64,000 bases of DNA from Raillietiella orientalis (taxonomy: Eukaryota): positions 1 to 64,000 of the forward strand of contig JAYWIR010000048.1 of NCBI GenBank assembly GCA_036172245.1, written 5' to 3'. Positions 26,479 through 62,664 of the stretch are shown piece by piece. Numbering within the stretch: position 1 is the first letter of the stretch; every line of letters starts with the position of its first letter. A model generated the notes under the pieces. The model searched no databases. It saw nothing but the letters and a program-made list of their open reading frames with translations, and was not told the origin of the DNA. Both the position numbers and the translations under genes were made by a program.

Positions 26479-26481
26479 AAA

Positions 26482-28419: not shown

Positions 28420-31400
28420 CAGCAATGCGCGGTCTCGCTTCTTCCCGTCGCGTCCGAGTGGCCTGTTGGAACGTCAACGGGCTGCAGGACAACGAGAAGA
28501 GGCGATTGGTTGCCAACGTCTTGCGTGACTTCGATCTGGCCCTGCTGCAGGAGATTCACGCACTCTCCGAGCAGCAAGCGGCCGATCTGCAAGTTCGCGC
28601 AGGCGGGACGCTCCATTGGAGGTCAGGCTCCCAGAATACCTGCGGAGTCGCATTCCTTGTCCGGGGCAGGGTGGCGGGAGCGGTGCGGAGCGTTTGTTTC
28701 GACGAGGAAGGTCGTGTGGGCCAACTTGTTCTCAAGTGGTCCGAATCGATCAACCTTGTCGTCACGAACGTGTACGCGCCGAGCGGCTTCGCGCGTCACA
28801 CCGAGAAACTGGAGTTTTTTGAGAGACTGCGCGACCGCTGGCTCAGCAACTCCGGCCCCGACGTGGTTCACCTCGTAGCCGGGGACTTCAACGTCCACGC
28901 GCTATCGGAGGAGTCTCACCGTCGCCGGAAGAAACGGCTGGTGAACGAGGTGTGCGCGTCGGTGCACGCCTCGAATTTGCTGGCCGACGATCCCGGAATG
29001 CGTGCTTTGCCGGACCATGTGTTCCTCGACGATCACCTGCATTGTCGGGTGGGTCGAAGAGGTCCCGTGCCGTCCGAGCTTTCCGACCACTACAGGCTGG
29101 AGTTTGAGCTACTCCCGCCTGGCAAGGGCCCTGCGACGCACGTCTGGAGGTTGCCGGCCGACTGGTTGAGAAATCCGGTGGCTGCGGAGCACCTCCGCCA
29201 GCATCTGCGGACCTTTGCCGTTCGAGAGCTCGTGGACTGGGACGATCTGAAAAGATCGGTCCGCGAGTTCTGCAGCCGGTTCCCCTTGCGCTTCCCCGTG
29301 GCTTCGGGGAAGGCGTGGCCAACAGCAGAGAGTTTCTGCAGGCCCGCCAATTCTTTCGATGCCCGGACGTCCGGTACCTTGCGGAGTACAAGGCCAAGGC
29401 CGAGCGCCAGGTCTGGCAGTCAGGAGCAGCTTGTCTGCTCGACGACCAGGGCCTGGAGTGCTCGGGCGCGGCCGAAGTTCGCCGCCTCCTAAAGCGCTAT
29501 TACTCCTTGTTGTACGCTAGGGAGCCGACGGAACGCAGTCTCTCGGAGCTGCTTCTGCCGGCGGATTCCCCGGCGGTCGACGAGGAGGAACGCGCCACTC
29601 TTGACTTGCCCTTCACGGCGGGAGAAGTGTCTTCCGCCATAGCGGGCCTCAAGAAGCGCAAGGCGCCAGGTGAGGATGGTCTGCCTGCGGAGTTCTTCCA
29701 GTGCTTCGCGGCGGAACTCATCCCCCTGGTGCTGAGGCTTTCTGCGCTGATGCGAGAGACGGGCAATGTGCCGGCCTCGTTTCGCTCAGCAAGGGTGCGT
29801 CTGTTGCCGAAAGGCGGAGACATGCGCCATTTAAGCAACTGGCGTCCCATCACCTTGGTGAATGCGGACGTCAAGTTGTTCTCCAGGCTGTGGGTCGCGC
29901 GCCTGGGCAGGATCGCTGGATCCGTGGTAAGTCCGGAGCAGTCTTACGCTGTTCCCGGGCGGTCCATGGAGGCGAACCTGTTCTTCGCGCGCACGTGGCT
30001 CGAGCTGCAACGCTGCGTGGCGCACGACAGCCAGGCACCCGCGTCTGCGGCTGCCGAGGCTAGGCGTCGCTGCATTCGGCCTGGGGAAGCGCCGGGTGCC
30101 TTGGCGGTCGCGGTCGATCTCCGCAAGGCGTTCGATTGCGTAAATCAGGATCTCCTGCGGGAGCTCCTGGAACGCCTCGGTCTCCCGGTGCACCTCGTGG
30201 CGTATTTGCGCGCTTGCTGGCGCCACGCGCTCATTTCCATCTCTTTTAGCGGCTGCCACGTGTACGGCGTGCCGGTGCGGCGGGGCATCAGGCAGGGCGA
30301 CAGCTTAAGCCCGTTGCTCTTCAGCATCTTCTTTGAGTTGGTGCTGAGGGCGTACAGGCTGACGGTGGCCAACCTGCCGAGCTCTTGTCCAGGAACGCCG
30401 TCCGTGGCGGCCTATGCTGACGACCTGCTCCTCCTCTTACCCATGACCACCCCGGCATCCAGTCTCGAGGATTTCTTCGAGCTGATTCGCCGGGGGGCGG
30501 GCATGAGCGTAAACCGGAGCAAGAGCGTGGTCGTACCTATTGGTGCGGCGTGGGAGGGGCAGTCCGACTGGATCCGCCTGGGGATCCCGACCGCTTCCTC
30601 CGTGCAATATCTGGGCGTTCCGCTGGGGAACATCAGCCCAATGGAAGTGTGGTCGGACTGCCTTCGGAAGGCTTCGAATGCCCTGAGCCCGTTCCACCAT
30701 GGCAGGTTCGTCCTGCCGGAGCGGGCCACGATATGGAACACCTTCGTTGCCCCTCTCTTGCGCCCCCTGCTTTTTGTTTGCCCGCCCCCCTACTCGGCCA
30801 AGCTCCAGGCGCACAGCCTGTTGAGGAACGCTCTGTGGAGACCTGCGAGGTCCAGGATCCGCCTCAAAGACTTGGCGGCTCCGCTACGGGATGCTGGCTT
30901 AGGCATCCTGACGCTGGAGAGAATCGAGCTGCAGGTGCAGCTTCGGATGTTGGCCCTGTGCGCCAACCTTTGGTCCACTCCGTGGTGCGCTCCCGCGCGC
31001 CTGCTTCTGCGGCGCTGCACAGGCAGCGATGGACTTCTGTCGCTGCGGCCGCACACGGAGCGCGCCACGAGAAGCTTCGGTTTCCCCTTGAAACCGCTGT
31101 ATCGGCTCCTGGAAGCCCAGGGATGGATCTCCTGCCGCCCAACGAACTTTCAAGCCTGGCGGCAGGAACCGTTGCATGGCTGGGCAAAGCACCAGGATGT
31201 TTCCCTCCTGGAACTCCGTTGCGCTCACCTCTCCCCGTATTGCACGGTGGATGAGGTGTGCAACAGCCAGGAGAAGTGGACCCGCCTGGCCGTCACCCCC
31301 CTCGAAGACGCACTGTCAGCCCTTAGGGCAAGAGATGACAGTTGCGAACCGGCGAGATGGGAGGTCGCCTGCACCATCGCAGGAACAACGCGACCTATTG

Positions 31401-31984
31401 GCGGCTGGAAGACTTGCGAGCTGGCGGACGCCGCCACGCCTCGCCACGTTTCGAAGGGACTCCTTCGGTGGAGCGAACACTTGAGTGTGCCCCTTGAAGA
31501 ACTTGTGGTTCCTCCCTCGTGTCTGAACACTTCTGTGTTCCCCCTTTCGTGGAAGCAGGACGTGATTATGCTGGTGCATTGGGGTTTTCACTCCAGCCAG
31601 CGCACGAACCTTGTTTCCGGAAGAGTCGTCTCCCCAAACTGTAAGCGGTGCGGGGAAGTGGAAACGCTCCCGCACCTGCTCCTGGACTGCGGTGCCCTTC
31701 TAGGACTCTGGCGGAGGCTGGCCTCAGCTCTCCTGCACCAGGGGGACACCGCGAGGGAGTTGATGCGCCGCTTCTTCTCGCCAGGCGGCCTGTCATTGGG
31801 TGCTGTCGTTGCAACCGTGTGTTGCACCCGCGCCATCGACAAGGCCCACCGAGAGTTGGAGAAGCTGGCCATCCTTCGTCAGCCCACCGGATTAGCCAGC
31901 GCAAACATGTCGTCGGCTGCCCAGTGGGCCCATCTGCCACAGGGCGTAAGGAGAGAGATCGCCGGCATCCATCGCCCGTTTTGA
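28410..31984 (+). pseudogene. Family C ORF2 EN-RT-Zn finger, one frameshift near 29290
   Basis: ORFs 28410-29492 and 29315-31984; all EN and RT motifs present; CKRCGEVETLPHLLLDC. Confidence 0.92.
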
Positions 31985-32401
31985 AAGGAAGGAACGGATT
32001 TACCAAAGACCCCTGTCCCCTGCCCTCCATATTTTTCTTTTATTTTTTTATATAGTAGTGTGTTTGTGGTCCCTTCCCTCCCGTTCCGGACTTTCGGCAT
32101 ACCGACCTGCGTGTCGGGGATCCCACCCCCTTCGTCTCTTGTTTTCCCCTTTGTCCGGGAACCCTGTTCCCGGATAGTTTATAATAAACGTCCCGGCGCA
32201 CCAGGGTGACAAACAGCCAACCCCCCGCGTTCGTCTCGATCTCCTGGACGTCTGCCGCGGTGATCACGTGGATCTCCTGCAACAGGGCCAGGTCGAACTC
32301 CCGCATGGTGTCGGCTGTATCTCGCCTGTTACCGTCGTCGCGCAGCCCGTTGACATTCCAACAGGCCGCGCGAATGCGACGGCGACTGGCGAGCCCAGGT
32401 G

Positions 32402-34153
32402 TTACTCCTGGGAAGATGGCAGTGCGGCGTCCGCCATCTGCTGGGGCGGGACGCTAGGTGGACGAGGGGGGTCAGGTGCTGAAGGCACCTGGTCCCCCTC
32501 CTTTATCGGTGCCGGCGCGTCGGCCGGATCACCCGCAGGTGGAGTCGCGCCTACCTGTTCGCCCTCCTCCATGGGGGCGGGATGTTCAGGGTCGGCGCCT
32601 GCAGGGGGGACTTCACCCCCCTGTTCACCCTCCGCCATGGGGGTGGCCGGATCGACGGCTTCCGAGTGTGGGAATTCCTCCTCCGAATTTCCCACGCTGG
32701 CGACGGTTTCCGTCTTCTCCTCCTCGCTGGTGGAGGGGAGGCGCCTCCTGGGCTTCTGGGACTTGCGACCAGACTTCCTGGGGGGTGCCTCCGAGGAGGA
32801 GGATGTACTTCCGGCCCCCATGTCTAACTCACCTGTGGGGGCCTTCTTCGCCGGAGCCGGCCTTCGCACGGCCTTGCGCGAGGGGTTCTCACGCTCGGCC
32901 AGCGTGACCGCGAGCTCCTCCGCCACCTGCGCGAACGCGGCGTCCGCGGCTTCGTCCGCCGCTATGTCGCGCGGCTCACCCTCTGTGTAAACAGAGGGTT
33001 CGCCGTCGCGAGCCTCGGGCGCAGCGGAAACGGCAAGGGGAGGATCGACGCGCCGGGTGGCCATCTCGGGAACGACGATTCGTTCCAGTGCCACCGTGCA
33101 CCTGCGCAGAGTTTTCGAGCGCGGACCGGGTTTTTTCGGCTTACCGGCCGTTTTGCGCTCTTCGCTCTCCGCGGGTGGGAGTTTCCTTGGCTTTCTGGCC
33201 TCTACAAGCTGCCATCCCTCTTCGCCTTCCACCGTTTCAGAAGGTTTATCCTCCGGCTTACGCGCCGGAGGTTGAGGTGTTGGCAGCTTGTGCTGGCCCT
33301 TTTCTACTTTAGGTCTAGAGACCTTTGAAGCACGTTTCCCCTGCGCTTTTTTCGCGGCAGGGGGAACCAAGGTGGGGCGTTTGGGGCACACGCGCCGAAC
33401 GTGGCCCCGCTCCCCGCACAAATGGCATTGTATATTGGGACACCTTTTAGGTAGGTGACCCACGGTATCACAATGCCCGCAATACCGGGGCTTCCCTACA
33501 TACCACAGGTCGACGTTTTCTTGCGCCACCTGTAGTTTGTGGGGAAGCCCACAATTCTCCCTTACGGTAACCCACGCTGCAGCCTGCCCACCAAAAAGGC
33601 TATCGAAGCCGTCGAAAATGGAGGGTTTCGGCCACAGTGCGTGCACCTCACCGTACTTCCGTAATTCCTCACCAACCGCTGACCGCGTCATGCGGCTGGT
33701 GATGCCAGTCATGTGGACCACCACGGAGCGGTCCATTGATACTGGCAGGATCTTGCGGCCGTCTACGTTCAGCGGCGCATGGATTAGGCGGTGAGTTAAG
33801 GTGACATCTTTGCAGACCACCTCGACCCGCTGCCCGCCGCTGAGGACGGAGAGGCCGTCCAGATCCTTCTCATTAACATTCGCGTCCTTCAACGCTTTGC
33901 TGAAGGCGCGCGCTGTCCGGCCTTCGAACAAGTTGCCTACCTGGTAGACAAGCGATGGCTTGTACCCGGAGGCCTTGCATGCTGCCATCTCCGCCATGGC
34001 TTCTGCGCTGGGCGCGGCCACCATGGCGCTCCATGTCCTCTGCGTGTCCGGGGATGATTCCGGGGCGGCTGCCCCTGCTCCAGTAGGCTGTGGGGGCGAA
34101 CTAGCCTTGCCCACTCCCACCTCCATCGCGGTGTCCTCTGGCGTCGTGGCCAT
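32402..34153 (-). CDS. Family B ORF1, intact
   Basis: MATTPEDTAMEV start; CGHCDTVGHLPKRC, CHLCGERGHVRRVC. Confidence 0.85.
   Translation of the reverse strand: MATTPEDTAMEVGVGKASSPPQPTGAGAAAPESSPDTQRTWSAMVAAPSAEAMAEMAACKASGYKPSLVYQVGNLFEGRTARAFSKALKDANVNEKDLDGLSVLSGGQRVEVVCKDVTLTHRLIHAPLNVDGRKILPVSMDRSVVVHMTGITSRMTRSAVGEELRKYGEVHALWPKPSIFDGFDSLFGGQAAAWVTVRENCGLPHKLQVAQENVDLWYVGKPRYCGHCDTVGHLPKRCPNIQCHLCGERGHVRRVCPKRPTLVPPAAKKAQGKRASKVSRPKVEKGQHKLPTPQPPARKPEDKPSETVEGEEGWQLVEARKPRKLPPAESEERKTAGKPKKPGPRSKTLRRCTVALERIVVPEMATRRVDPPLAVSAAPEARDGEPSVYTEGEPRDIAADEAADAAFAQVAEELAVTLAERENPSRKAVRRPAPAKKAPTGELDMGAGSTSSSSEAPPRKSGRKSQKPRRRLPSTSEEEKTETVASVGNSEEEFPHSEAVDPATPMAEGEQGGEVPPAGADPEHPAPMEEGEQVGATPPAGDPADAPAPIKEGDQVPSAPDPPRPPSVPPQQMADAALPSSQE
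32485..32655 (-). repeat. 66-bp (22-aa) PMxEGxQ repeats in family B ORF1 tail
   Basis: PMAEGEQ..., PMEEGEQ..., PIKEGDQ spaced 22 aa apart. Confidence 0.75.
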
Positions 34154-34240
34154 TGGACACCGACGATGTACACAAAACACCACACACATTAAAGCGCTTT
34201 CCTACTACTCTTGAGGAGTGAAGGAAAAACACGTCCTCCA

Positions 34241-35590
34241 ACTGGCCGTGGAGGGCGCTGGCTGCACGAGGCTGCTAGCTCCTCCGCGGCACGCGCGAAG
34301 GCTACGTCATCGATGTTGGTGTCGATGACGGACGCCGCCGCCGGCTCCCTATCCTCGCTGTTGACAGAGTCAACAGAGGGGTTGTCGTCGGTAGCGGGGA
34401 GTTCTTTTTCGCAGCGGTCGGGAATGCGCTCCACGACAACGCTGCATTCTTTAATTTGCTCGCTTGCCTGCTGTTTTTTCTAGCGGTACGCGAGCTTTTT
34501 CTCCATCCTCCTCTCCTTCTTTGATTTTCTGGCCGTAGCCACCTGCCACCCAGGCTCCTGGCTATTTCCCTCGACTTGTTCGGCGTTGTTCACCAGGGTC
34601 TCGAGTGCGGCCTGGGCCTTGGGCGCGGGTGGCACAGCCTTCGCGGCAGCTTTCGCCGCCAGCCTTTTCTGCAGAAGCCGGGCGCGTTTTTTAATGTTTC
34701 TCTTGGAAACCACCCGCACTGCTGCTTTTGGGCACACCTTTCTCCTGTGGCCCATTGTGCCGCATACTTGGCACTGCACGTTGAGACACCTCTTTTTGAG
34801 GTGGCCCGACGTATTGCAAAAGCCACAGTATTTCGGCTTCCCCACATACCAGAGGTCGACGGTTTCGCCTTCGACCACTGGTTTGTGGGGAAGAGTGCAG
34901 TTCTCCCGAACGGTCACGCGCGCAGCAGTGATGCCGTGTTGCAGCCCCGTGTAGTCCTCGAAAGGACTAACTTTCGTCCACTGCGCGTGGACCGTTCCGT
35001 ATTCCTCCAGCGCGGCGCAAACCTGTGCCTTGCGCATCCGCGCGTTAACACCTAACAGGTGGACCACCATGCTGCGGTCCGCCGTAATAGGGAGGAGCCT
35101 GCGCGTCTTCATCACCACGGGGGTTTTAAGGAGTCGTTGGGCCATCTCTGCTTGTTTGCAGATGACCTCAACGTACTGACCCCCGCTGCGGATGGTCATA
35201 GCGCTGAGCTCCTCCTCTTTCACATCGAGAGCGCGCATGCCCTTCGAGAAGGCGCGCGCGCTCTCTAAAGAATATAAATTGCCTACCTTGTAGAACTATG
35301 AGGGGTTGTACCCCTCCTCTATATAGGCCGACAATTCCGCCGCGGCTGCAGGTGATGGCGCCGACACAACGGCGCTCCACGCTTGCGCTGCAGCGGGGAC
35401 CGATTCTGTGGGGGCGCATGCCCCACCTCCTTCGCCTCCGGGGGCTACGTTGCCGCTGCCCCCTGGCCATCCCTGGTGGTCGCGTCAGGCATCGCTGCCT
35501 GATCGACCACCGAACCACACGACGCTTGCACTGGGGGAGACTTCCTGGCACGAGGAGCACCGAGAAAACACGTCCACCCTGGAGCACGCC
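34241..35590 (-). mobile_element. LINE family A 5' part (5' end + ORF1 N-two-thirds)
   Basis: 5' motif 35564-35575; ORF 34480-35238 with CGFCNTSGHLKKRC, CQVCGTMGHRRKVC; FARAAEELAA at 34189-34434. Confidence 0.85.
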
Positions 35591-36509
35591 AGGCGGTCGA
35601 TTGCGTAAATCAGGATCTCCTGCTGGAGCCTTTAGAACGTCTCGGTCTCCCGGTGCACCTCGTGGCGTGTTTGCGCGCTTGCTGGCGCCACGCGCAAATT
35701 CTTATCTCTTTTAGAGGCTGCCACGTGTACGGCGTGCCGATGCGGCGGGGCATCAGGCAGGGCGGCAGCTTAAGCCCGTTGCTCTTCAGCATCTTCTTTG
35801 AGTTGGTGCTGAGGGCGTACAGGCTGACGCTGGCCAACCTGCCGAGCTCCTTTCCAGGAACGCCGTCCGTGGCAGCCTATGCTGACGACCTGCTTCTCTT
35901 CTTACTAATGACCACCCGGTGGAGATGTCTCCCTAAACTGTGAGCGGTACGGGGAAGTGGAAACGCTCCCGCACCTGCTTTTCGACTGCGGTGCCCTCCT
36001 AGGACTGTGGCGGAGGCTGGCCTTAGCTCTCCTGCACCAGGGGGACACCGCGAGGGATTTGATGCGCCGCTTCTTCACGCCAGGCGGCCTGTCCTTAGGT
36101 GCTGTTGTTGCAACCGTGTGTTGCACCCGCGTCATCGACAAGGCCCACCGACAACTGGAGAAGTTGGCCATCCTCCGTCAGCCCACCGGCTTAGCCAGCG
36201 CCAGCATGTCGTCGGGTGCCGAATGGGCGCATCTTCCAGAGAGCGTGAGGAACGAGATCGCCGGCATCCATCGCCCGTTCTGAAAGGAAGGAACGGCAGA
36301 ACCAAAGACCCCTGTCCCCTGCCCTCCATATCTTTATTTTTATTTTTTCTATTCGGTGTATTTGTGGTCCCCTCCCTCCCGTTCCGGACTTTCGGCATAC
36401 CGACCCGCGTGTCGGGGATCCCACCCCCTTCTTTACTCTATGTGCTTTGTCCGGGAACTTTGCTCCCGGATTGTTTGTTATAAACGCCTCGGCGCACCTG
36501 GGTGATAAA
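35591..36509 (+). mobile_element. LINE family C 3' fragment from KAFD, internally deleted (~35920)
   Basis: Matches 30126-30450 and then 31625-32213; YADD; terminus 36479-36509. Confidence 0.9.
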
Positions 36510-38545
36510 CAGTCAACCCCCCGCGATCGTTTCGATCTCCTGGACGTCTGCCGCAGAGATCACGTGGATCTTCTGCAGCAGGGCCAGGTCGAACTCACGC
36601 AAGGTGTAGGCCGTATCTCGTCTGTTGCCGTCGTTGCGCAGCCCGTTGACGTTCAAACTGGCCACGCGGATTCGACGGTGACAGGCGAGCCCAGGTGTTA
36701 TTCCTGGGAGATCGGCTCTGCGGCGTCCGCCACCTGTTGGGGCGGGACGCAAGGTGGAGGAGGAGGGGGACAGGTGCTGAAGGCACCTGGTCCTCCTCCT
36801 CCATGGGTACCGTAGCGTCGCGCGGCTCCCTCTCCGGTGGGGTCGCGCCTACCTGTTGGCCCTCCTCCATAGGGGTGGGCTGTTCAGGGTCCGCGACGGC
36901 AAGGGGGACTTCGCCCCCTGCTCACCCTCCGCCATGGAGGTGGCCGACTCGACGACTTCCGCGCGTGGGAGTTCCCCCTCCGGGATTTTCACGCTGCCGT
37001 CGGCTTCCTGCTTCTCCTCCTCGCTCGTGGAAGGGAGGCGCCTCCTAGGCTTTTGGGAATTGAGTCCCGTCTTCCGGGCAGGTGCCTCCGACGAGGAGGA
37101 TGCACTTCCGGCCCCCAGGTCGCACTCACCTGCGGGGGTTTTTTTCGCGGGAGCCGGCCTTCGCACGGCCTTGTGTGAGGGGTTCTCACGCTCGGCCAGC
37201 GTGGCCGCGAGCTCCTCCGCCGCCTGCGCGAACGCGGCGTCCTTGGCTTCGACCGTCACTATGTCGCGCGGCTCACCCTCTGTGCAAACAGATGGTTCGC
37301 CGTCGCGAACCTCTGGCGCGGCGGAAACGGCGAGGGGAGGCTCGTCGCCCCGGGTGGCAGCCTCGGGAACGCTGATGCGCTCCAGTGCTACCGAGCACTC
37401 GCGTATATTTTTCGAGCGCGGCCCAGGTTTTTTCGCCTTTTTGGCCGGCTTTGCCACCGCTTTCTCTGGTGAACGCTTTTTCGGTTCTTTTTTGGCCTTA
37501 ACCAGCGTCCATCTCTCTTCCTCTCCTGCGTCTTCCGCGGGTTTTTCCTCCGACGCCTGGGTGGGAGGAACAGGAGATGGCGGCTGGGGCCGGCCAGTAT
37601 CGCGCGCTGGTCTTTCCCTTAGCTTTTCTTGTTTGCCCTGTGCCTTTTTGGCCTCAAGGGGAACCGGGGTGGGGCGTTTCGGGCACACGCGCCGAACGTG
37701 GCCCCGCTCCCCGCACAGGTGGCACTGGATGTTAGGACATAGTCTGCGAACGTGTCCTACGGCATCACTGTAGTTGCAATACCGGGGCTTCCCCACTTAC
37801 TAGAGGTCGACCGTTTCTCTGGCAACCTCCAGTTTGTGGGGGAGGCCACAATCCTCCTTGACGGTGACACGCGCCGCAGCCTGGCCCCCGAAAAGGCTAC
37901 TGTAGCCTTCAAAGATCGTGGGTTTAGGCCACAGCGCATGCACATCGCCGTGTTTTTTCAATTCCCCACTCACCGCAGTGCGAGTCATGCGGTTCGTGAT
38001 TCCGGTTAAATGGACCACAACGGAGCGGTCCATTGTAACCGGATAGATCTTGCGGCCTTCTGCCGTCAGTGGGTTATTTATCAAGCGCTGTGCCAAGGTG
38101 ATGTCTTTGCACACCACCTCGACGCGCTGAACCCCTCTGAGGACGGAGAGGCCGTCAAGATCTTCTTCCCTGACATTCGCTGACTGCAGCGCCCTCGTGA
38201 AGGCACGTGCAGTCTTCCCATCGAACAGGTTGCCTACCTTGTATACAAGCGATGGATTGTACCCGGCGGCCCTGTACGCTGCTTGTTCAGCCAACGTTTC
38301 CGCGCTAGGCGCGGAAACCATGGCGCTCCAGCTCCTCGTCTTGGGCGACGAGGGCGATTCCAAGGCCTTTGATTCTGTGAGTCGTGGGGGGGGCTAGCCT
38401 GCCTCACTCCTACCTCCATCGTGGTGTCCTCTGGCAGCGATGTTATCGGACACCAACGATGTGAAACAGCACACACTTAACCAAAAAAAACCGCTTTCCG
38501 GTACTCGTACGCGGAGCGCCGGAAAAACACGTCCGCTCTCGAGGA
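36510..38545 (-). mobile_element. LINE family B (second subfamily) 5' part: ORF1 with stop/frameshift, EN start
   Basis: 5' motif 38522-38536; ORFs 37800-38363, 36849-37796, 36513-36752. Confidence 0.88.
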
Positions 38546-38558
38546 GAGGGAGTTGGGG

Positions 38559-41500
38559 TCATCACTCGGGTACGCCCGGGGCGTTTATTAATGAACTCTG
38601 CATGCGTGTTACAAGGCCCCACCACGGCCGTAAACACAGGACTTGTCGGGACAACGCAGCCCGGCGTGTCACTCTCCGACAGCGAAAGGGGATGAGGGGA
38701 AAAAACCAAAAAGAAAAATAAAGAAATAAAAAAAAAAAAACAGTTTGGAGGGCAGGGTAGGAATCACTGGTCGCTGTGAGGAGGGCCCATCCTTTGAAGG
38801 AAGCCCTCGAGGTCTCTCCGCATATCTCCCAGCTGGGGCCATCCGGCAGCTCTCCGCAAGAAGCGTTGCGCGTATGGGATGACATCCCTCTCGTGTGGAC
38901 CCACTCCTTCGTTGTTGGCGTCGCTCCATGCCGCCACGATGCCACGGACGCAGCACAAGGCTGCGATGGCTGCGGCTGGCTGCAGTGCGTCCATCACGAA
39001 GAGGGGCCGAAGAACGTCTCTGGGGGTGCTGCCCGTAGGAAGCCCGAGGGTCGTCCCGAACCATTTCCAAAGGGGTGGGAGGGCAGCGCAATCCACAATA
39101 AGGTGAGGGAGCGACTCCCGCTCCCCGCACCTGGCACACGCAAAATCCACAGCTCCCCTCGTCGAGTGGAAGCGGCGCCCGTTGCAGGGTGGACCCCAGT
39201 GCAACAAAAGCAACGCCGACTCTTGCCACTTAGGAGGCAGGATCCTGGATTCCTTCATCACCGGGGGCCACTTCAGCTCATCTCTGGGGATGGCGACCAG
39301 CTCGCTCATCTTAATAATCCTCGCGGCTGGATGCTCGGTGTCGTGGCGTCTGCCAGTTCTCCTGTTGTCCAGCCGCTTATCAACTTCTGCATTTTATCAA
39401 CATCTGTCTCCTGCTGCATCGAGGGACAAGACTTCTATTGTCCCAAGATGCCGCAGGAGACTTGCCACCTTGGCGTCCGGCTGCTGTGAAGTGCCCTTCT
39501 CAGGAAGGGCAGCGCCGTAGCTAGGACGGTCGTCTCCGCCCACATGCATCTTGCTGAACTCTCCAAGAGATTCCGCAGCGTGCAACGGGCGTAAGAACCG
39601 CATCGGAGACGATTCCACGTCTCGTGGCTTCTCTGGTTGACCACTGCCCACGTTCCAATATTCTCCTCCAGCCAGGCGGGGGAGTTGGCGGGGCAGCAAA
39701 CCATCCAGCTGTTCTCCTTGGCCAATGTCGCCATGCGCCCGAGCAGTAGGCCGCATCTTCGCATCTTCCGGCCAGGGCTTAGAAGAAAAGATGCGAGTCC
39801 ATCGCTCCGGGACACACAGCTGGCCAAGAGGCGGGCCGGAGTGCACCAAGGGGTGCTCCACATCTTCGCTGCGATGGCGAGAGTTCGCCACCGCAGCTGC
39901 TTCTCCACGCGCTCCAGCGTCAGGAGGCCAAGACCGCCGTCCCGACGCGGAGTGCACAAGTCCTTCAGAGGTTCTCGGGGCCTCCCCTTGCCCAAAAGGG
40001 CGATATGGAGGAGGTCCTTCGTCCTCTTCTTCGATTCCACGGTGGGGGGGCAAACAAAAACCAAGGGACGGAGGATAGGGGCCGCAAAAGCGTTCCAAAC
40101 CGCGGTCCGTTCCGGAGAGTGAAACTTGCCTTCCAGGAACGGGCCGATCGCCGTCTCGACTTTTCAGAGGCAGCTGGACCACGCTTCCGCAGGGGAGTAG
40201 TTCCCCAACGGCACACCAAGGTACTTGAAGCACCTCGCCCTGGGGATCCCCAGACGGACCCAGTCCTGCTGCCCTGTCCACGCCGCACCTATTGGCACCA
40301 CCGACGACTTCGCCCTGTTAACCTGCAGTCCGGTTCCGCTGACGAGCAGATCGAAGAAGTCTCCGACCGCCTTTGCCGGGGTGGACATTGCCAACAAAAG
40401 CAGAAGATCGTCGGCGTATGCTGCTACGGCGGCCGTGCCGGGTCACGAGCTCGGCATGGAAGCCAGAGTCACCCTGCACGCTCTCAGCACCAACTCAAAG
40501 TAGGTGCTGAAGAGCAGGAGGCTGAGGCTATCTCCCTGCCTTATGCCCCGCAGCACCGGCACGCCATACACCTTCTGACTGCTGAAAGAGACGGTAATTA
40601 TCGCATTTCGCCAGCAACAGCGCAGGGAGGAAATCAGGGAGAGTTGGAAGCCCATGCGACCCAGGAGCTCCAAGAGAAGTTCCTGGTCTACACAGTCGAA
40701 CGCCTTGTGGAGATCGACTGCGAGCGCTAGGGCCCCCTTCCCCGCCCGGGGTTCCCTTCTTAGCCCGGCTGGCGGCCCCAATGTGGGGTTGCCGACTTTC
40801 CCTATCCCTTTCTTCTCTCTTCTCTGCAGGTGCACCCATGTGCTTGCGAAGAAGAGGTTGGCATCCATACTTCGCCCGGGAACAGCATAAGTCTGCTCCG
40901 GGCTAATTACGGATTCTGCCACCTGCTTCAGACGCGAAGCCCATAGCCCTGCTATTAACTTGGCGTCCGTATTCACGATCGTGATCGGACGCCAGTTTTT
41001 TAAGTCTCTGAGGTCTCCCCCTTCCGGAAAAAGCCTCTCTCTGGCTGACCGAAACGAGGCGGGAACATCGCCTTCATCTCGGATAAGCCTTATAGACTCA
41101 AGCAACAGGGGTGCCAGCTCTTCCGCGAAGCTCTGAAAGAACTCCGCGGGCAAGCCATCTTCCCCTGGAGCTTTACGCGTCTTGAGCCTTTTGATACCGG
41201 CAAGAATTTCGCCGGTGGTAAAAGGCTCGTCGAGGCTTTCCATCTCCTCCTTTTCTATTGCCGGGGCGCCATCCGGAAGCAAGCGCCGAGAGGCGTCTCG
41301 ATTTGGGGGCTCTCTGGCGTAAAGGGAGGAATGAAAACTCCGCACGAGATGCCGTACCGACGCCGGGGACGAACATTCCTGGCCCTGGTCGTCCAGCAAG
41401 CTGGCCGACCCGCATTGTCAGGCTTGGCGTTCGGCCCCGGCTCAACACTCGGCCAGGCGACGGACATTAGGGGTTCTTTCGTACCTACGGACCTGTAAAT

Positions 41501-41620
41501 AGGTCCGATGGTTGCAAGGACCCTCTCCAAATCCGAGGGGCAGGCGGTCCTGGGGGAACTGCTCGCAGAACTCCCGGACCGAGGCCTCAAAACGGTCCCA
41601 ATCCGCAAGACTCTGGAGCG
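38559..41620 (-). mobile_element. LINE ORF2 3' two-thirds + terminus (attributed to family B), decayed
   Basis: KAPGEDG, DLHKAFD, RQGD, YADD, KYLG, CARCGERESLPHLIVDC; terminus 38559-38589. Confidence 0.88.
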
Positions 41621-42949
41621 TCGAGCGGACGTGTCTTTTCGCTGCCCCTGAGTTTCATTTCCGTTGGTGCTTGTGCGTGGTGTGGGTGAAGGATTAGGCA
41701 GCAATGCCTGATACCACCATCGGTGAGGATCCGGGGGCGATGACCTCATTGCCCCCGGAGGAGATGGAGGTGGGGGCTCCCGCATCAGTGGAGGCTCCCG
41801 CCAGCACGGATGCGCCCCCGGCCCTACCCAGGGCTTGGAACGCCGTGGCTGCGGCACCTACGGCAGCGGCTATGACGAAAATGCGCGCTTACCTGGAGAA
41901 GGGGTATAACCCACCCCTTCTATATAAGGTAGACGGTCTTTATTCTCCTGAGAACGCGCGCGCCTTCTCTCAGGCGATGCGCGTTCTCGGCGTACAAAAA
42001 GAGAAGCTTCTGGCTATGTCCGTCAGAAGCGGGGGTCAATTTGTGGAAGTTATCTGCAAAGAGGCAACTCTTGCGCAGAGACTTTTGCGAACCCCCGTAG
42101 TTATGGGCAGCCGGAGGCTTCTCCCAATTACTGAAGACCGGTCGGTGATCATTCACCTGACCGGTATCGCGTTCCGGATGACGAAGGAGGCCGTCCGGAA
42201 CGAATTAGAAAAATTCGCAACTGTCCACGCGCTGTGGGGAAAGCCTACTCCTTTTGTCGATTACGACGGGGTGCTTGGCAGCCTGGGTGCAGCGCGAGTG
42301 ACGGTTCGCGAAGGGTGTGAGTTTCCCCACAAACTGACCGTTAACGGTAAATCCGTTGACGTGTGGTGCGTTGGGAAACCCAAGTTCTGCGGCTGCTGCA
42401 GCAGCTTTGGTCACCTTAAAATGAGGTGTCCGAGCGTGCAGTGCCAGCAATGCAAACAAGCGGGGCACACCGGTCTGGTGTGCCCGCAAAAAACGCGAGA
42501 GAGCGCGCGGCTAAAAAGAAGAATAAGCTGGCAGCTCGTGCTGCTGCTAAGGAGGTCACTTCCGCCACCAAGGCGAAGGCCAGCCCTGAGACCCCGGCGA
42601 AAAACGCCGAAAAGGTCGAGGGCGAGGATCAAGAGCCAGGGTGGCAGAAGGTCGATCCCAAGAAAAACTCCCATAAGAAGGGAAAGAACGTGGCGAAACG
42701 GAGCGAAACCGCTCCGCGCCGCGAAAAAACCAAAACCTGCTCGTCGTCGTAGAGCGGATTCCCGCCATCGACAAATGCGGCGCTAGAAAACTCGCTGCTG
42801 CCCCTGCTCAACCCTCCGTTGACAAAGTCAACAAGGAGGGGAGCGAGGCGGCGGCGTCCGTCATCGAGCCCAAGCTCGATGACGTCGTCTTCGAGCGCGC
42901 CGCGGAGGAACTGGCTGTCATGTTGTAGCCCACCGCCCCCAGGTCCAGT
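41621..42949 (+). mobile_element. LINE family A-type 5' part (ORF1 41704-, frameshifted)
   Basis: 5' motif gcggacgtgtcttttc 41625-41640; CGCCSSFGHLKMRC, CQQCKQAGHTGLVC; FERAAEELA at ~42890. Confidence 0.85.
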
Positions 42950-43597
42950 TAGAGGACGTGTTTTTCCTTCACTCCTCAAAGAGTAGTAGGAAAGCGCTTT
43001 CTTGTGTGTGGTTTTTTTTTGTACATCGTTGGTGTCCAATGGCCACGATGCCAGAGGGCACCGCAATGGAGGTAGGAGTGGTGGAGGCTAGTTCGCCCCC
43101 ACAGCCTACTGGAGCAGGGGCAGCCGCCCCGGAATCATCCCTGGCCACGCCGAGGACATCGAGCGCTATGGTGGCCGCGCCCAGCGCAGAAGCCATGGCG
43201 GAGATGGCCGCATACAAGGCCTCCGGGTACAAGCCATCGCTTGTCTACCAGGTAGACAACTTGTTCGACGGCCGCACAGCGCGCGCCTTCAGTAAAGCGT
43301 TGAAAGACGCGAACGTAACGGAGAAGGATCTGGACGGCCTCTCCGTCCTCAGCGGCGGGCAGCGGGTCGAAGTGGTCTGCAAAGACGTCACCTTGGCTCA
43401 CCGTTTAATCCATGTGCCGCTGAACGTAGACGGCCTCAAGATCCTGCCAGTGTCAATGGACAGCTCCGTGGTGGTCCACATGACTGGCATCACCAACCGC
43501 ATGACTCGGTAAGCGGTTGGTGAAGAACTGCGAAAGTACGGTGAGGTGCACGCAATGTTGCCGAAACCCACCATTTTCGACGGCTTCGATAGCCCCT
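42950..43597 (+). mobile_element. LINE family B 5' fragment
   Basis: 5' motif 42954-42966; ORF1 N-terminus very similar to 34153-33600. Confidence 0.88.
42954..42966 (+). promoter_or_regulatory. Conserved 5'-terminal motif GGACGTGTTTTTC, putative internal promoter (representative of 11 sites)
   Basis: Lies within ~5-30 nt of the inferred 5' end of families A, B, B', D and E; function is inferred. Confidence 0.6.
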
Positions 43598-45326
43598 CTT
43601 CCTGTTGACCCTCCTCTATGGAGGCGGGCTGTCCAGGGTCGGCGACTGCAGGGGGAACTTCACCCCCCTGCTCACCCTCCTCCATGGGGTTTGCCGGCTC
43701 GACGGCTTTCGAGCGTGGGAATTCCTCCTCCGATGTTCCCACGCTGGCGACGGCTTCCGTCTTCTCCTCTTCGCTGGTGGAGGGGAGGTGCCTCCTGGGC
43801 TTCTGGGACTTGCGTCCCGATTTCCTGGGGGGTGCCTCCGAGGAGGAGGATGTACTTCCGGCCCCCAGGTCCAACTCACCTGTTGGGGTCTTTTTCGCCG
43901 GAGCCGGCCTTCGCACGGCCTTGCGTGAGGGGTTCTCACGCTCGGCCAGCGTGGCCGCGAGCTCCTCCGCCGCCTGCGCGAACGCGGCGTCCTCGGCTTC
44001 GACCGGCGCGTCGCGCCGCTCACCCTCTATGTAAACAGAGGGTTCGCCGGCGCGCACCTCGGGCGCGGCGAAAACGGCGAGGGGAGGCTCGTCGCCCTGG
44101 GTGGCAGCCTCGGGAACGCTGACCAGCTCCAGTGCTACCGTGCACTCGCGGACGGTTTTTGAGAGCGGTCCGGGTTTTTTCGCCTTCCCGGCCGTCCTTT
44201 TTTCCGCCTTTTTCTCCTTTCTCTCTTGAGGCCCTTTTTTGGGCTCTTTCCTGGCCTTAACCAGCTTCCATCCCTCCTCCATTCCTGCGTCCTCTAGAGT
44301 TTTTTTCCTCCGATGCCTGTTTGGTAGGAAGAGGAGATGGCGGCTGGGGCCTGCCAGTTTCACGTTGCGGTCTTTCGATCCTCTTGGCTTTCTTTGCCTG
44401 CGCTTTTTTGGCAGCGGGCGGCACCGGGATGGGCGTTTAGGGCACACACGACGAACGTGTCCCTTAACCCCGCACAAGTGGCACACAATATTCGGTCACC
44501 GCTTGCGCAAGTGTCCTACTGCATTGCAGGAGCCACAAAAGCGGGTTTCCCCACGTACCAGAGGTCTACGACATCGTTATTGACCTCTAATTTGTGGGGT
44601 AAGCCACCACCCTCTTTGACGGTTACACGCGCTGCAGCCTGGCCACCGGAAAGACCATTATAGCCTTCGAAAATCGTTGCCTTCGGCCACAACGCGTGCA
44701 CTTCTGCATGCTTTTCTAACTCATTACCAACCGCTGACCGCGTCAAGCGGCTGGTTATTTTCCGTGAGATAGACCACTACAGAGCGGTCCATCGTCACCG
44801 GCAAGATCTTGCGACTATCCACGTTCAGCGGGTCGATGATCAGGTGTTAAGCCAAGGTGATATCTTTACATACCACCTCGACCCGCTGACCGCCGCTGTG
44901 GACGGAGAGTTCGTCAAGATCTTCCTCCAATATGTTGTCAGACCGCAGTGCCTTCGTCAAGGCACGTGCAGTCTTGCCATCGAACAGATTGCCTACCTGA
45001 TAGACAAGCGATGGCTTGTATCCGGCGGCCCTGTAAGCGGCTTGTTCATCCAGAGTTGCCGCGCTAGGCGCGGCAACCATGGCGCTCCAGCTCGTCGCCT
45101 TGGGCGGCGAGGGTGATTCCGGGGCGGACGCCCCTGACTCTGTAGGCTGTGGAGGTGGACAAGCCTCCCCCACACCTACCTCCATCGTGGTGTTCTCAGG
45201 CAAGGTTGCCATCGGACACCAACGATGTGCAGTATGCACCACACACAATAGAAATCCGCTTCCTACGACTCACGCAAGAGCGAAAGAAAAACACGTCCGC
45301 CCGGCGGCGGAAGGGAGAGGCAATGT
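43598..45326 (-). mobile_element. LINE family B 5' end + ORF1, decayed, truncated in the PMEEG repeats
   Basis: 5' motif 45286-45300; ORFs 44847-45248, 44516-44746, 43398-44486. Confidence 0.85.
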
Positions 45327-47158
45327 CCTACCTGATCCCCCTCCTCCATGGGGGTGGCCAGCTGCTCGATAGCGGAGGGTGGGAAAATCGCTCCCTCCGT
45401 TCCCACGCTGCCGGATTCCCCCTCGGCTGATGGTGCGTCCCCCTCCTTCTTTGTCGGGATGCGCCTCTCTGGATTTTTGGACTTCCGCCCAGTCTTCTTC
45501 GGTGGCGCCTCCGCGGAGGAGGACGCACTTCCGGCATCCGGTTCGTGGTCACCTGTCGGAGGTGCCTTGCTCGCGGCCGGCCTTCGCAAGTCCTTTCGGG
45601 CGCCGTTCTCACGTTCCGCGAGTTCGGCCGCGAGCTCTTCCGCCGCCTGTTGGAAGGCGGCGTCCTCGATTACGGCGAGCGCGTCGCTCGGCTCTGCCTC
45701 TGTTTGCACAGAGGGTTTGCCTTCCGCGATCGCGGCTTCGGCGTCAACGAGGCGGGGGATATCTCACCCAGTGGAGGTCTCGGGGATCTCCACTCGCTCC
45801 AAAGCGACCGAACATTCGCGGAGCAAAGCGCGGCGTTGCCTTCTATTTAAAGAAGTTGTCGCAGGTTCCGCTGTCGGTTCTCCGGTTTTTCGAATTTTTT
45901 TACTTTTCGGCTTTGCTGTCCGCCAGTCCTCGTTGTCACCAGTGTCGTCGGGAGTTTTCTCGACCGCCGTTTGCTGGGAGCATTCGGACTCTGTCTTTTT
46001 GCTTCGCCTTTCCTTTGCTTCTGTGGGCTTGCTTGTTTTCTCCAAGCGTTTCCCTTTACCTTTTTTCAAGGCAGAAGGCGCTGGAGGTTCCCGCTTTGGG
46101 CACACTTTCCGGAGGTGGCCCTTCTCTCCGCAGTGGAAACACTGGATGTGAGGGCACCGTTTTTTCAGGTGCCCTGTTGTATCACAGTGCCCACAGTACT
46201 TGGGCTTGCCCACGTACCAGACATCGACGACCTCGTTGCCGACGTCGAGTTTGTGGGGCAGCCCACCGTTTTCGTGGACCGTCACACGCGCTGCAATCAT
46301 GCCACTGAACAGTCTTCCGTATGTTTGGAAGACGTTGGGCTTGGTCCAGAGCGCGTGCACCGTACCATGTTTTTGCAACTCTTCCTGCACGCCAGCTTTG
46401 GTCATGCGAAGAGTTACACCGGTTAGGTTTGCAACAATGGAGCGATCCTCGGTTACCGGGAAGACCTTTCGGCCTTCCAGTGTGATGGGAGTGTTCAGCA
46501 GGCGCTGAGCCAGGCTTGCATCTTTGCAAGTCAGCTCCACCCGCTGGCCTTCACTCATCACGAAGAGACCTTCCAGGTCTTCCTCATTCCCATTCAACCG
46601 CTGTAACTCTCTCTCAAAGTTACGAGCGGTGTTCCCCACAAGAAGGTTGCCTACCTTATAAATCAAGGATGGTTTATACCCTTGATCCCGGTAGGCACAC
46701 TGTTCGGCAATGGCTTCAGGAGATGGTGCTGCAGCCACTGCGCTCCAGGTTTCCGTCGTTGCCGAGGAAGGATCCAAGGATGCGGTTGCCCCCTTTTTCA
46801 AGGGGAGGGTTGCTCCTTTTTCCGGGGTGGCGTTTGTCCCCATTTTCAAGGGGAAGGTTGCACCCTTTTGCACGGGGGCAGTTGCTCCCTTTTTCAAGGG
46901 GATGGTAGCCCTCGTTTCCGACGGGACGGTTGCCCCCTTTCCCAAGGGGGAGGTTGCTTTCGTCTCCGTGGGGACCGTTGCCCCCACCTCTATGGGTTGG
47001 GGAGAGGAACAAGCCTCTCCCCCTCCGATCTCCATTGCGGTGTCCTCAGGCATTTCTGCCATTGGACACCGCAGATGCACAACACACAAACACTAACGCA
47101 ACGGAAGCCTTTACAACAGGCGCAGAGGACCGCGGAAAAAACACGTCTGCACGCCCAT
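45327..47158 (-). mobile_element. LINE family B-related (B') 5' end + ORF1
   Basis: 5' motif 47135-47150; ORF 45764-47089 (CGHCDTTGHLKKRC, CFHCGEKGHLRKVC) plus 45263-45709. Confidence 0.87.
46783..46990 (-). repeat. 24-bp (8-aa) tandem repeat KGATxPLK, ~9 units, in B' ORF1
   Basis: KGATVPSE TRATIPLK KGATAPVQ KGATFPLK MGTNATPE KGATLPLK KGATAS. Confidence 0.85.
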
Positions 47159-49190
47159 TTGATAGCTAAGGTTTGGGCAGAGCGGTTGCGACGGGTTGCC
47201 AACATCTTCATCAGCCCGGAACAGACATATGCTGTTCCCGGGCGAAGCATGGAGGCGAACCTGTTCCACGCTTCCACCTGGCTAGAGCTCCAACAAGGAA
47301 GGAGCTTGGTGCGCAGCCGGAATTCCGGTGCGTGCGCCGGCGAAGGGTCAGATGGTCGGGTGGGGGAGGAAGCCCTTGCGGTCTCAGTCGACTTGCGCAA
47401 AGCATTTGATTGCGTCGACCAGAATCTCCTTCTGGAGCTTCTGAGATGCTTGGGCTTCCCGGCCTCATTAGTGGCCTATCTGCGCTCCAGCTGGCGCTAC
47501 GCGCTCATCAACGTTTCTTCCAGCGGGCAGACAGTGCACGGCGTGTCGGTGCGGCGTAGGATCCGGCAGGGAGACAGCCTGAGACCCTTGCTCTTCAGTA
47601 CCTACTTTGAGTTGGTACTGAGAGCGTACAGGGGAACTCTGGCGCACCTGCCGCACGACTGTGCCGGTAACCCGGCCGTTTCAGCGTACGCGGACGACCT
47701 TCTGCTGCTGCTCCCTATGTCCACCCCGGCTTCGACGGTCGAGTTCTTCGACCTGCTGCATCGGGGAACCGGACTTACGGTGAACAGGACGAAGTCGCCC
47801 GTGATGTCAGTTGGTGCGGCGTGGGCAGGGCAGCAGGACTGGATCCGTTTGGGGATCCTCACGGTGAGGTACTTCAAGTACCTTGGTGTGCCGTTGGGGG
47901 ACTACTCCCCTGCTGAAGCGTGGTCCGGCTGCCTCCAGAAAGTAGAGACGGCGATCGGCCCGTTCCTAAACGGCAGGTTTTTCCTTCCTGAACGGGCCGC
48001 GGTTTAGAACACGTTCGCGGCTCCTCTCCTCCGCCCCCTGCTTTTTGTTTGCCCTCCACAGAGAAAATTAAAAAGCGGACAAAGGACCTCCTCCGTATCG
48101 CCCTTCGGGGCAACGGGAGGGTCCGTTTCCGCTTAAAGTGCTTGTGCGCTCCGCGTCGGGACGGTGGTCTCGGCCTCCTGACATTGGTGCGGCTGGAGCT
48201 TCAGCTCCAGTTCCGCTTGTCGGCACTCGTTCCAGAGTTGTGGTGCACCTGCTAATGCGTCCCTGCACGTCTCCTTCTCCAGCAAGCCACCGGTAAGACG
48301 GGACTCACGTCGTTTCTTGCACTCCGTCGCCTCGTCAACCAATGCGGACTTCAGCTACGGAGGGTGGCTGCGCTGACACGGAAAAACCAAGGATTGATCA
48401 CCTGTCGCCCTGCGAACGGTAGTGTCTGGTTGCAGAAAACCGTTCGCACGTGGGGACAGTTCGGCGTGCAACGCCCCCAACAGGAACGACGGTTCCTGTT
48501 TGGGGGTTACAGAAGCTGCACGCTTCGTGAGATCCTGTAGGATCCAAAGAAGAGAGCGTGGGCAGGAAGAACCTCCCTCGCTGCTGCGCTGCCCTCCCTG
48601 ATGGAACATCTGGACAGCGATGTTGAGGCGAAGTGGGAGGTTACAGTTACAATCTTCGGGAAGGAGAAGGAGATAGGAGAGTAGAAGACGGGTCAGCTGA
48701 CTGACGCTGCCACCCCGAGTATGCCTCCCCATGGACTTTTACGCTAAGGCGCGCTGCTCGACGTTCCCATTGAACGTTTGAAGTGGCTCCCAATACTATT
48801 GAACACCTCCACCTTCCCCTTAAAATGGCAGGAGTCGGCTCTCCTGTTGCAGCACTGGGGACTTTCTTGCAACGCCCGCCGACACCACTGGACCTGGGGA
48901 GCGGTGAACCCCAATTGCGTCAGGTGTGGGGAACGGGAGTCCCTGCCCCACCTGCTTGTGGATTGTGTTGCCCTTCGGCCCCTTTGATTCTTCTTTGCCG
49001 CTGCCTTCGGAATCCCCTGCGGCAACCCCAGGGACGCTCTGAAAGCCCTCTTCGTTGCTGACGTTCTTCGGCCAGCGGCCTCGTTATCAGCCCTGTTCTG
49101 CCTACGCGGGATCGTCGCCGCCTGGAGCAAGGCTACCGGAGGACCACACGACCAGTGTGCCATCTAGCCAGCCTCCGAATTCATGAGGAG
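47159..49190 (+). mobile_element. LINE family A ORF2 (RT to C-terminal domain), decayed
   Basis: WAERLRRVANIF (matches 1280-1515), DLRKAFD, RQGD, YADD, KYLG, CVRCGERESLPHLLVDC (matches 1850-2080). Confidence 0.9.
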
Positions 49191-62650: not shown

Positions 62651-62664
62651 CAGTCTCGCCGCCT

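Follow-up and report, generated by a model that had tools for sequence, protein, structure and literature searches.

Two Insertions at One Place in ORF1

The first 64,000 nucleotides (nt) of contig JAYWIR010000048.1 of Raillietiella orientalis (assembly GCA_036172245.1), referred to here as the window, are largely built of long interspersed nuclear elements (LINEs) that have inserted into one another. We describe a site in the first open reading frame (ORF1) of two of these elements, A1 and A2, at which two copies of another LINE, B1 and B5, have inserted. The two host/insert pairs consist of the following parts.

34241-35578, minus strand: host A1, with its own 5′ end (motif GGACGTGTTTTC at 35575), its 5′ untranslated region (UTR) and the N-terminal two thirds of ORF1
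32212-34240, minus strand: insert B1, with a complete 5′ end, a 5′ UTR, an intact ORF1 of 599 amino acids (32402-34201) and codons 1-74 of ORF2
41625-42950, plus strand: host A2, which begins with its own 5′ end (GGACGTGTCTTT at 41627) and extends through ORF1 as far as the junction
42951-43594, plus strand: insert B5, with a complete 5′ end and ORF1 codons 1-200, interrupted by one in-frame stop

Host A1 is cut off after AAEELAASCSQRPPRPV, and it may end at 34245 if the CAGTT at the boundary belongs to B1. B1 is in turn cut within ORF2 by the 3′ end of a C-type LINE, and B5 breaks off against the inverted copy B3. Read on the minus strand, the A1/B1 junction (first base of B1: 34240) is ...GCGGAGGAGCT...CCTCCACGGCCAGTT / GGAGGACGTGTTTTTCCTTCACTCCTC; for A2/B5, where B5 begins at 42951, the plus strand gives ...GCGGAGGAACT...CCCCCAGGTCCAGTT / AGAGGACGTGTTTTTCCTTCACTCCTC. 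On both strands these strings read as the initial annotation of the window had written them, that is, AAEELA...ccagt in the host and t(g/a) after the cut. Measured from the first base of the AEEL codons, the junction lies at 48 nt in A1 and at 49 nt in A2, so that the positions agree within 1 nt, and at both junctions host and insert are on the same strand (sense). For this comparison the stretch containing the A tails was aligned by hand, as MAFFT places artificial gaps in them.

The start of B at the junction is the true terminus of the element, because the copies B2, B3, B4 and F begin with the same motif as B1 and B5 in four other flanks of the alignment. By our own estimate, the chance that two 5′ junctions of a ~6-kb element fall within 1 nt of each other in the same orientation is ~3/12000, and it stays at ~0.01 after allowing for the 45 pairs among 10 5′ ends. 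The shared B insertion site in ORF1 of A1 and A2 is real and beyond chance.

Independent Histories of Hosts and Inserts

B1 and B5 agree at 593/645 nt (92%) and their ORF1 products at 86.9% over 199 amino acids, versus 888/1385 nt (64%) for A1 and A2, compared between the 5′ end of each host and the junction, and 57.3% over 232 amino acids for the ORF1 of these hosts (57-59%). Identity in a sliding 100-column window ranges over 43-76 within A and rises to 89-96 once the junction is reached; within 60 nt on each side of the junction, it is 45/63 for A versus 56/61 for B. This comparison of host with insert divergence, proposed in the initial annotation together with values of ~88% and ~60% amino acid identity, bears out those values and places the step at the junction.

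The selection test was performed on ungapped ORF1 cores. Over 203 codons of A1/A2, the proportion of differences is 0.626 at synonymous sites (pS) and 0.271 at nonsynonymous sites (pN), with a binomial p of 4.9e-9, and third codon positions are identical in 51% of cases, versus 69% for first and 73% for second positions. B1 and B5, compared over 184 codons, show 21.5 synonymous versus 20.5 nonsynonymous differences (pS 0.159, pN 0.049, p 9e-5). Such values indicate that the differences within both pairs arose under purifying selection, before insertion. Once B has cut it, a host ORF1 is no longer open to selection; the split between A1 and A2 therefore predates both B insertions, and B1/A1 and B5/A2 are separate events because the differences between the hosts arose in a functioning ORF1. 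Likewise, B1 and B5 derive from different active source copies, and not from one duplicated insertion, because they differ mainly at synonymous sites.

The hosts themselves have each a canonical 5′ terminus, and their flanks are different: the 5′ flank of A1 is an antisense C-like ORF2 at the DLRKAFD codons, and that of A2 is the antisense ORF2 of element H at the LQSLADWD codons (translated by hand). The identity step, the selection signatures and the separate 5′ ends of the hosts support the sense-orientation target site that had been proposed. In a maximum-likelihood tree of ORF1 cores (14 rows, with high-scoring segment pairs shorter than 120 query residues dropped and a B5 row of 125 amino acids), B1 and B5 form a tight pair with support of 96/94 and branches of 0.03 and 0.06, and A1 and A2 are on long branches (0.31 and 0.35) within a polytomy that includes F and a copy at 50166. 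What the initial annotation called family A is therefore held together by the shared tail sequence around the site, but comprises two deep lineages that form no resolved clade in the tree.

A Third Junction

A LINE 3′ end, called here X, adjoins the ORF1 tail of a further A-like element, A3. This junction has to be read together with several neighbouring elements; D1, D2 and C were delimited by self-comparison of the window.

15457-15712, minus strand: X, the 3′ UTR of a LINE only, ending in the hairpin CCCGGGCGTACCCGGG and then TGTAA(A)
14910-15456, minus strand: host A3, with the ORF1 tail from SNAGKKAVRRP (to ~15214) and the start of ORF2 (15086-14904)
25827-26456, minus strand: a B-like copy of the B1 subfamily, with the ORF1 tail from ~codon 546 and ORF2 codons 1-167, identical to B1 at 331/362 positions
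38563-41642, minus strand: H, comprising ORF2 from ~codon 264 and the 3′ UTR, in tandem with B2, whose 5′ end it precedes by ~20-25 nt
15713-19911, minus strand: D1, 97% identical to D2
~19913-25826, minus strand: D2
~26460-32211, plus strand: C

On the minus strand, the junction at 15457/15456 reads ...AATAAACGCCCCGGGCGTACCCGGGTGTAA(A) / CCTCCAATGCTGGCAAGAAGGCCGTAAGGCGTCCG. The sequence that follows the 3′ end of X, CCTCCAATGCTGGCAAGAAGGCCGTA..., translates as SNAGKKAVRRP, in agreement with the earlier statement that the ORF1 of A continues there as KKAVRRP. By tblastn, 15214-15450 matches amino acids 439-516 of the B1 ORF1 (44%, E 1.4e-8), and the start of ORF2 comes next, at 14904-15086; A3 is cut at ~14909 by the 3′ end of another LINE. 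The X/A3 junction lies 17 nt before the KAV codons and has the same (sense) orientation as the two 5′ junctions. As the distance from AEEL to KAV is 48 nt in four uninterrupted relatives (B1, B2, B3 and F), it falls 11-17 nt upstream of the cut point in A1 and A2. The start of A3 matches CCTCCACGGCCAGT at 9 of 14 positions; this match is weak alone, with a probability of ~0.01 at a fixed offset by our own binomial estimate, which becomes higher if offsets are allowed.

The initial annotation had placed a B-type 3′ end at 15456. Its junction string and its count of 9/14 are correct, and its B-type label would follow from two links between elements. X (255 nt) shares 81.6% identity with the H 3′ UTR (38563-38815), and H is the sole relative of X in the window, in which no B copy keeps its own 3′ end. 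X is not part of the D1 body that lies upstream of it: the two are joined at the truncated D1 ORF2 through a microhomology of 9-10 nt (ACCTCG.GGG), and the joint suggests a microhomology-mediated deletion or a template switch. The break in the D1 ORF2 falls within its GIPT..YFK codons (15700-15740, minus strand, compared with 38800-38830). The D2/D1 tandem sits in the GDFN codons of the B-like copy at 25827-26456, and X follows on the same strand; as a single deletion from D1 into the 3′ UTR of that copy is the simplest account, X would be the 3′ end of the copy. H, for its part, is probably the ORF2/3′ part of a B2-type element because the H-B2 tandem has the layout of D2/D1. The B1-type and B2-type subfamilies are ~75-80% identical; for the copies B1 and B2 themselves the value is ~80%. 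We give about two chances in three to these links, which make X the 3′ end of a third B1-type insertion and H the ORF2/3′ part of a B2-type element.

Another reading, in which B1 and the copy at 25827-26456 are a single element split by C with a 360-bp duplication, was rejected, as the repeats agree at 331/362 positions while C is nearly intact. The dN/dS comparison of B1 with this copy covers 66 codons, with too few differences to decide.

Candidate Target Site and Duplication

The three hosts offer the following candidate sequences for the target and the target-site duplication (TSD); the last line gives the homologous place in an element that was not hit there.

34245-34254, minus strand: candidate target/TSD 10-mer CCTCCACGGC, at the end of A1
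42936-42945, plus strand: candidate target/TSD 10-mer CCCCCAGGTC, at the end of A2
15446-15455, minus strand: candidate target/TSD 10-mer CCTCCAATGC, at the start of A3, directly after X
32800-32945, minus strand: homologous ORF1 site in B1, uninterrupted (AEELAVTLAERENPSRKAVRRP)

The candidate 10-mers are ungapped, and those of A1 and A3 match at 8/10 positions. Immediately before GGAGGACG and AGAGGACG, B1 and B5 share the same final 5-6 nt, (C)CAGTT, which may be B's own 5′ start rather than host sequence. The D family begins with CGAGTGCGGACG (CGAGT...) directly after its own TSD, and since CAGTT may be the start of B in the same way, a TSD of ~10 nt (range 9-17), compared across different hosts, is favoured for the B1 subfamily. 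The spacing to the conserved flanking codons allows a TSD of 11-17 nt. The ~14-bp TSD of the initial annotation is not established, as its 14-mers come from different hosts and different insertions and match at 9/14 positions only.

Besides B1, the same ORF1 site is uninterrupted in B2 (~37220), B3 (~43970) and F (~45643); at these four empty paralogous sites, the DNA differs from that of A1 and A2 at the target. In one sequencing run, X1, a small share of the window's words occurs; its contigs (Logan assemblies) show 90-95% identity to A2 and B5, but no contig spans 42940-43008. One follows A2 to 42917 and continues for 57 letters more; the 30 letters read beyond 42917 are a diverged A2-like tail, which stops 3 nt short of the junction. 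The A2 ORF1 (362 amino acids) had no match at E <= 1e-10 among the collection proteins of 199-634 amino acids. A metagenome scan with the 24-nt B 5′ motif gave one locus of 2.3 kb and 42% GC, which carries a 25-nt LINE 5′ motif (GCGGACGTGTTTTTCCTTCGCTCCTC) at 164-188 and is otherwise unlike the window, with no LINE ORF. This locus (L001) is an unrelated contig and is uninformative on the target.

The Nested LINEs of the Window

Self-comparison of the window (tblastn and blastn) also delimited the nest as a whole and its remaining elements.

1 to ~49500 and 62100-64000: nested retrotransposons lacking long terminal repeats (non-LTR), LINE in LINE
~35581-36507, plus strand: C-like fragment
36508-38537, minus strand: B2
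43598-45301, minus strand: B3, inverted relative to B5
45331-47147, minus strand: F
62668-63943, minus strand: B4

The GC content is 55-65% in the LINE part and 45-51% in the flank. In the ORF2 at 21076-23850, Pfam identifies Exo_endo_phos with E 1.4e-12 and RVT_1 with E 8.8e-19; the ORF2 of C has an RVT_1 match as well. Human LINE-1 ORF2p is the best solved relative of ORF2 (E 1.1e-44), weaker matches among solved structures being R2 proteins (E at least 3.5e-14) and L1 endonuclease chains (1.5e-4). In the translations, a Cys/His motif can be read at the C-terminal end of ORF2 (CLRCGEIESFPHLLLDC and CKRCGEVETLPHLLLDC), and every ORF1 has two CX2CX4HX4C knuckles, with zf-CCHC matched by Pfam in two ORF1s; against the PDB, the B1 ORF1 gives a weak knuckle match only. 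A C-terminal Cys/His motif in ORF2 together with CCHC knuckles in ORF1 is typical of L1/Tx1 elements. Judged by these domains, the elements of the window can be assigned to the LINEs of the L1 group with an apurinic/apyrimidinic-type endonuclease (APE), that is, L1/Tx1-like. Matches in the protein-cluster atlas are generic clusters of LINEs with APE and reverse transcriptase (RT) from mixed taxa. No Pfam family was matched by 12 ORFs of the low-GC part (49285-60095).

All lineages have in common a 5′ terminus with GGACGTGTTTTT, which occurs at 10 places in the window (<=1 mismatch), in elements whose ORF1s are only 30-50% identical. Common to all is also the 3′ terminus, AATAAACGCCCCGG(G)CG..CC.GGTGA(N)AAA, which has a short hairpin and no poly(A). 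A scan with the 3′ motif gave nine matches, seven of which are element ends (1544, 14882, 15485, 19940, 32184, 36480 and 38588); the matches at 6349 and 59541 are not.

Element C has no canonical 5′ motif. In the ~30 nt before its ORF1 start codon (26433-26484) there is an inverted copy of the neighbouring B-type ORF1 tail (CCACCTAGCGTCCCGCTCCAGCAG), and therefore its 5′ junction would not be a simple insertion. The N-terminal part of the F ORF1 contains a 24-nt tandem repeat (46775-46990, ~9 starts, family D13), which encodes repeated KGAT.P..-like octapeptides. Lineage K (1-3324) holds a large inverted repeat of an ORF2 fragment (3-1208 versus 2077-3315, 88-91%), and its 3′ part (1824-2079) is 89% identical to 48935-49190.

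Other Fixed Sites in Sibling Elements

Three further lineages in the window reuse fixed sites in the genes of sibling LINEs. D2 and D1 lie head to tail on the minus strand (19890-19960 and 25800-25860), in sense orientation at the GDFN codons. The 3′ end of D2 (...GGGTGATAA) is followed by ATTTCAAT and then by the 5′ end of D1 (CGAGTGCGGACG); ATTTCAAT precedes D2 as well and corresponds to the D-F-N codons of the endonuclease motif AGDFN in a B-type ORF2. This arrangement indicates sense insertion of D with a TSD of ~8 nt and repeated use of the regenerated site. In the case of C and the C-like fragment, the 3′ ends adjoin the same nucleotide of an antisense ORF2 (~codon 74) in B1 and B2 (plus strand, 32184-32215 and 36480-36511), the inserts being 91-92% and the hosts 75-85% identical. 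A related element at 10880-14909 has its 3′ end (14882-14912) ~30 nt away, in A3.

The third lineage comprises the 5′ junctions of B2 and B4 and the 3′ junction of H, which fall at one antisense place of ORF2, the RxGxxA codons before SPEQTY (N-terminal region of the RT). The 5′ flanks of B2 and B4 are homologous at 30/42 positions by our own count (minus strand, 38534-38590 and 63937-64000), and the 5′ end of F (47148-47240) lies ~25 nt from this site, in another ORF2. We read the H-B2 pair as a putative tandem with a long TSD. The attribution of the ORF1 target to a whole family B, as first annotated, has to be narrowed: B1 and B5 do share the site, but B2 and B4 adjoin antisense ORF2 and B3 another position of an ORF1 tail. 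Because the other copies of the B clade are flanked differently, the specificity for the ORF1 site would belong to the B1 subfamily.

In coordinates of the ORF1 tail, three unrelated breakpoints (43594-43598, 45301-45331 and 26456) are found within ~70 nt (~B1 32551-32620). One of them is the 5′ end of B3 (45301/45302), in sense orientation in the tail of F, and this cluster may be a further target region. In the window, insertions in ORF1 are in sense orientation in 4/4 cases, and those in ORF2 are mostly antisense, with D2/D1 at GDFN as the exception.

Probable Homing and Its Alternatives

We think that B1 and B5, with the copy at 25827-26456 as a probable third member, represent one young subfamily of an autonomous L1-like LINE, and that this subfamily homes, in sense orientation, into the ORF1 tail of sibling A-type LINEs, and we put the probability of this explanation at roughly 0.7. 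Its observed basis is the position and orientation of the junctions, the independence of hosts and inserts and the L1-like set of enzymes. We infer a sequence specificity of the endonuclease, and the length of the TSD and the B-type identity of the 3′ end at 15457 would go with it. Insertion would proceed by target-primed reverse transcription. The APE of ORF2 would nick the antisense strand at a place that reads ~CCYCCANKKC in the sense strand, between the AEEL codons (~31 nt before it) and the KAVRRP codons (17 nt after it), and the nick would prime cDNA synthesis from the conserved 3′ hairpin of the element RNA. A cut of the second strand ~10 nt (range 9-17) downstream would leave a short TSD, and a full-length cDNA would end at the fixed 5′ terminus, (CAGTT)RGAGGACGTGTTTTTCC.

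Several points weigh against homing of this kind. There are just three junctions, two at 5′ ends and one at a 3′ end, and no copy has both of its ends preserved. An uninterrupted A-type ORF1 was not recovered from the window, the protein collection or the sequencing-run contigs. Assigning the 3′ end at 15457 to B relies on parsimony and the 81.6% match to H, which is itself tied to the B clade only through its tandem position; furthermore, if A1 and A3 were the same host, as in a tandem scenario, their 10-mers should be near-identical, and they differ at 2/10 positions. B2, B3, B4 and F have other 5′ flanks. Finally, the last 100-150 nt of A are 73-77% alike, versus 64% overall, so that the contrast between host and insert is narrower near the site; we read this higher identity beside the junction as a probable conserved coding block.

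A first alternative to homing is fragility: B would favour LINE islands in general, and some regional or structural feature of the ORF1-tail DNA would attract breaks without being recognised. The unrelated ORF1-tail breakpoints (the 5′ end of B3 in F at 45301/45302, the left end of B3 at 43598 and the right end of the B-like copy at 26456; ~B1 32551-32620) do cluster as such a hot spot would have them. The two 5′ junctions, however, agree within 1 nt and not just regionally, the four uninterrupted paralogous sites (B1, B2, B3 and F) are empty and have a sequence unlike that of A1 and A2, and other lineages of the window reuse exact sites with TSDs, for which reasons we find a hot spot unlikely. 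Somewhat less credit still is due to a single origin of the A-ORF1/B fusion, which was then copied as a retrotransposing composite element or through an ancient segmental or inverted duplication and whose B parts were later homogenised by gene conversion from young B copies, in tracts that stop where homology does. One alignment runs through both parts (33598-35518 versus 41677-43594, 73.5%), and other rearrangements are present in the nest. Yet the mostly synonymous differences between A1 and A2 cannot arise once B has broken ORF1, and those between B1 and B5 are selected as well; A1 and A2 have separate 5′ termini, in flanks that differ; identity steps at the junction, with no gradual decay; and A3 shows that A-like elements exist with an ORF1 tail and an ORF2 of their own. 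One multi-copy fusion, the scenario that the initial annotation had set against its own proposal, thus misfits the selection signatures, the identity step and the separate 5′ ends of A.

The least probable of the explanations, in our opinion, is a chimera formed at the RNA level, in which the reverse transcriptase jumped from the 5′ end of a B RNA onto an A transcript that ended or paused at this point of ORF1, the A part being a 5′ extension and not a target. Both junctions join, in sense, a complete B 5′ end to an internal position of A, which is the geometry of a template jump, and template switching is discussed for SINEs mobilised by Tx1 in the available part of PMC4494074. But two A RNAs with 64% identity would have to supply the same acceptor position, and the jump predicts no 3′ junction, yet a LINE 3′ end is found 11-17 nt from the same point of ORF1. 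Moreover, the 5′ ends of A should then sit at the B target; instead, A1 and A2 each begin at a different antisense site in ORF2.

Homing of the B1 subfamily could be part of a wider system, in which the LINE lineages form a guild: each endonuclease would recognise a short block of codons in sibling genes, and the elements would propagate almost only inside one another, in LINE-only islands. We regard this extension as tentative, a little short of an even bet. If true, specificity would be retargeted fast; the B1 type uses the ORF1 tail in sense and the B2 type the N-terminal region of the RT in antisense. Insertion in sense into ORF1 could also let the insert be co-transcribed from the promoter of its host.

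Relation to Known Target-Specific LINEs

R1, R2 and other target-specific LINEs use a single exact target over and over and have precise, full-length 5′ ends, as with the B1 subfamily. Their targets are multicopy host RNA genes or microsatellites, unlike the ORF1 of a sibling LINE in the present case. R2 uses a restriction-like endonuclease, and the ORF2 of the window matches L1 ORF2p far better than R2 (1.1e-44 versus 3.5e-14). R1 and R2 of ribosomal DNA and other target-specific LINEs are the subject of PMC5035012 and PMC4640811.

According to the available part of PMC4494074, LINEs of the Tx1 clade have transposons as targets: Tx1 inserts in the piggyBac-type Tx1D, Tx1-Mar in Mariner-N4_AMi, Tx1-8_Crp and Tx1-4_AMi in LTR retrotransposons, and Tx1-9_AMi in Harbinger; in Mariner-N4_AMi, one site is used in antisense and one in sense. 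The elements of the window resemble Tx1L of Xenopus and the Tx1 clade, as presented there, in being APE-type LINEs of the L1 group with fixed places in mobile elements and one orientation per site, and in having tandem copies that sandwich a TSD, as in D2/D1 (PMC4494074). Unlike the DNA transposon and LTR targets which that source describes for Tx1, the target here is the coding sequence of the ORF1 tail of a sibling LINE that belongs to the same superfamily. The window elements end in a conserved hairpin and GTGA(N)AAA, and they are likened to Tx1 by their targeting behaviour, not by RT phylogeny.

As regards layout, there is a likeness with Zepp of green algae, whose L1-type LINEs form nested clusters with 61% GC versus 53% in the genome, according to the portion of PMC3446292 at hand; for Zepp-like LINEs, nesting and one cluster per chromosome are described in the accessible parts of PMC3446292 and bioRxiv 10.1101/2025.03.28.645958. 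The window is likewise a GC-rich island of nested LINEs only, and it is likened to Zepp by layout, not by family sequence. Those parts of the Zepp accounts (PMC3446292; bioRxiv 10.1101/2025.03.28.645958) mention no fixed nucleotide targets in ORF1 or ORF2 and no set of lineages with different targets, unlike what is found here.

A Possible LINE Haven Inside Other LINEs

A search of the full-text literature found no report of a LINE that targets a fixed site in the ORF1 of another LINE, which is not proof that there is none. The havens of target-specific LINEs are rRNA and snRNA genes, microsatellites, telomeres and a few DNA or LTR transposons. Homing of the B1 subfamily into ORF1, if true, would add to these havens the coding sequence of a sibling LINE, and the subfamily would be one of several lineages of this genome with sites of their own. 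This could account for the construction of LINE-only, GC-rich islands, which may be centromere-like. It would also mean direct competition between retrotransposon lineages, each insertion inactivating a rival, and it would provide a natural series of related APE endonucleases with different short DNA specificities, useful for studying how specificity evolves.

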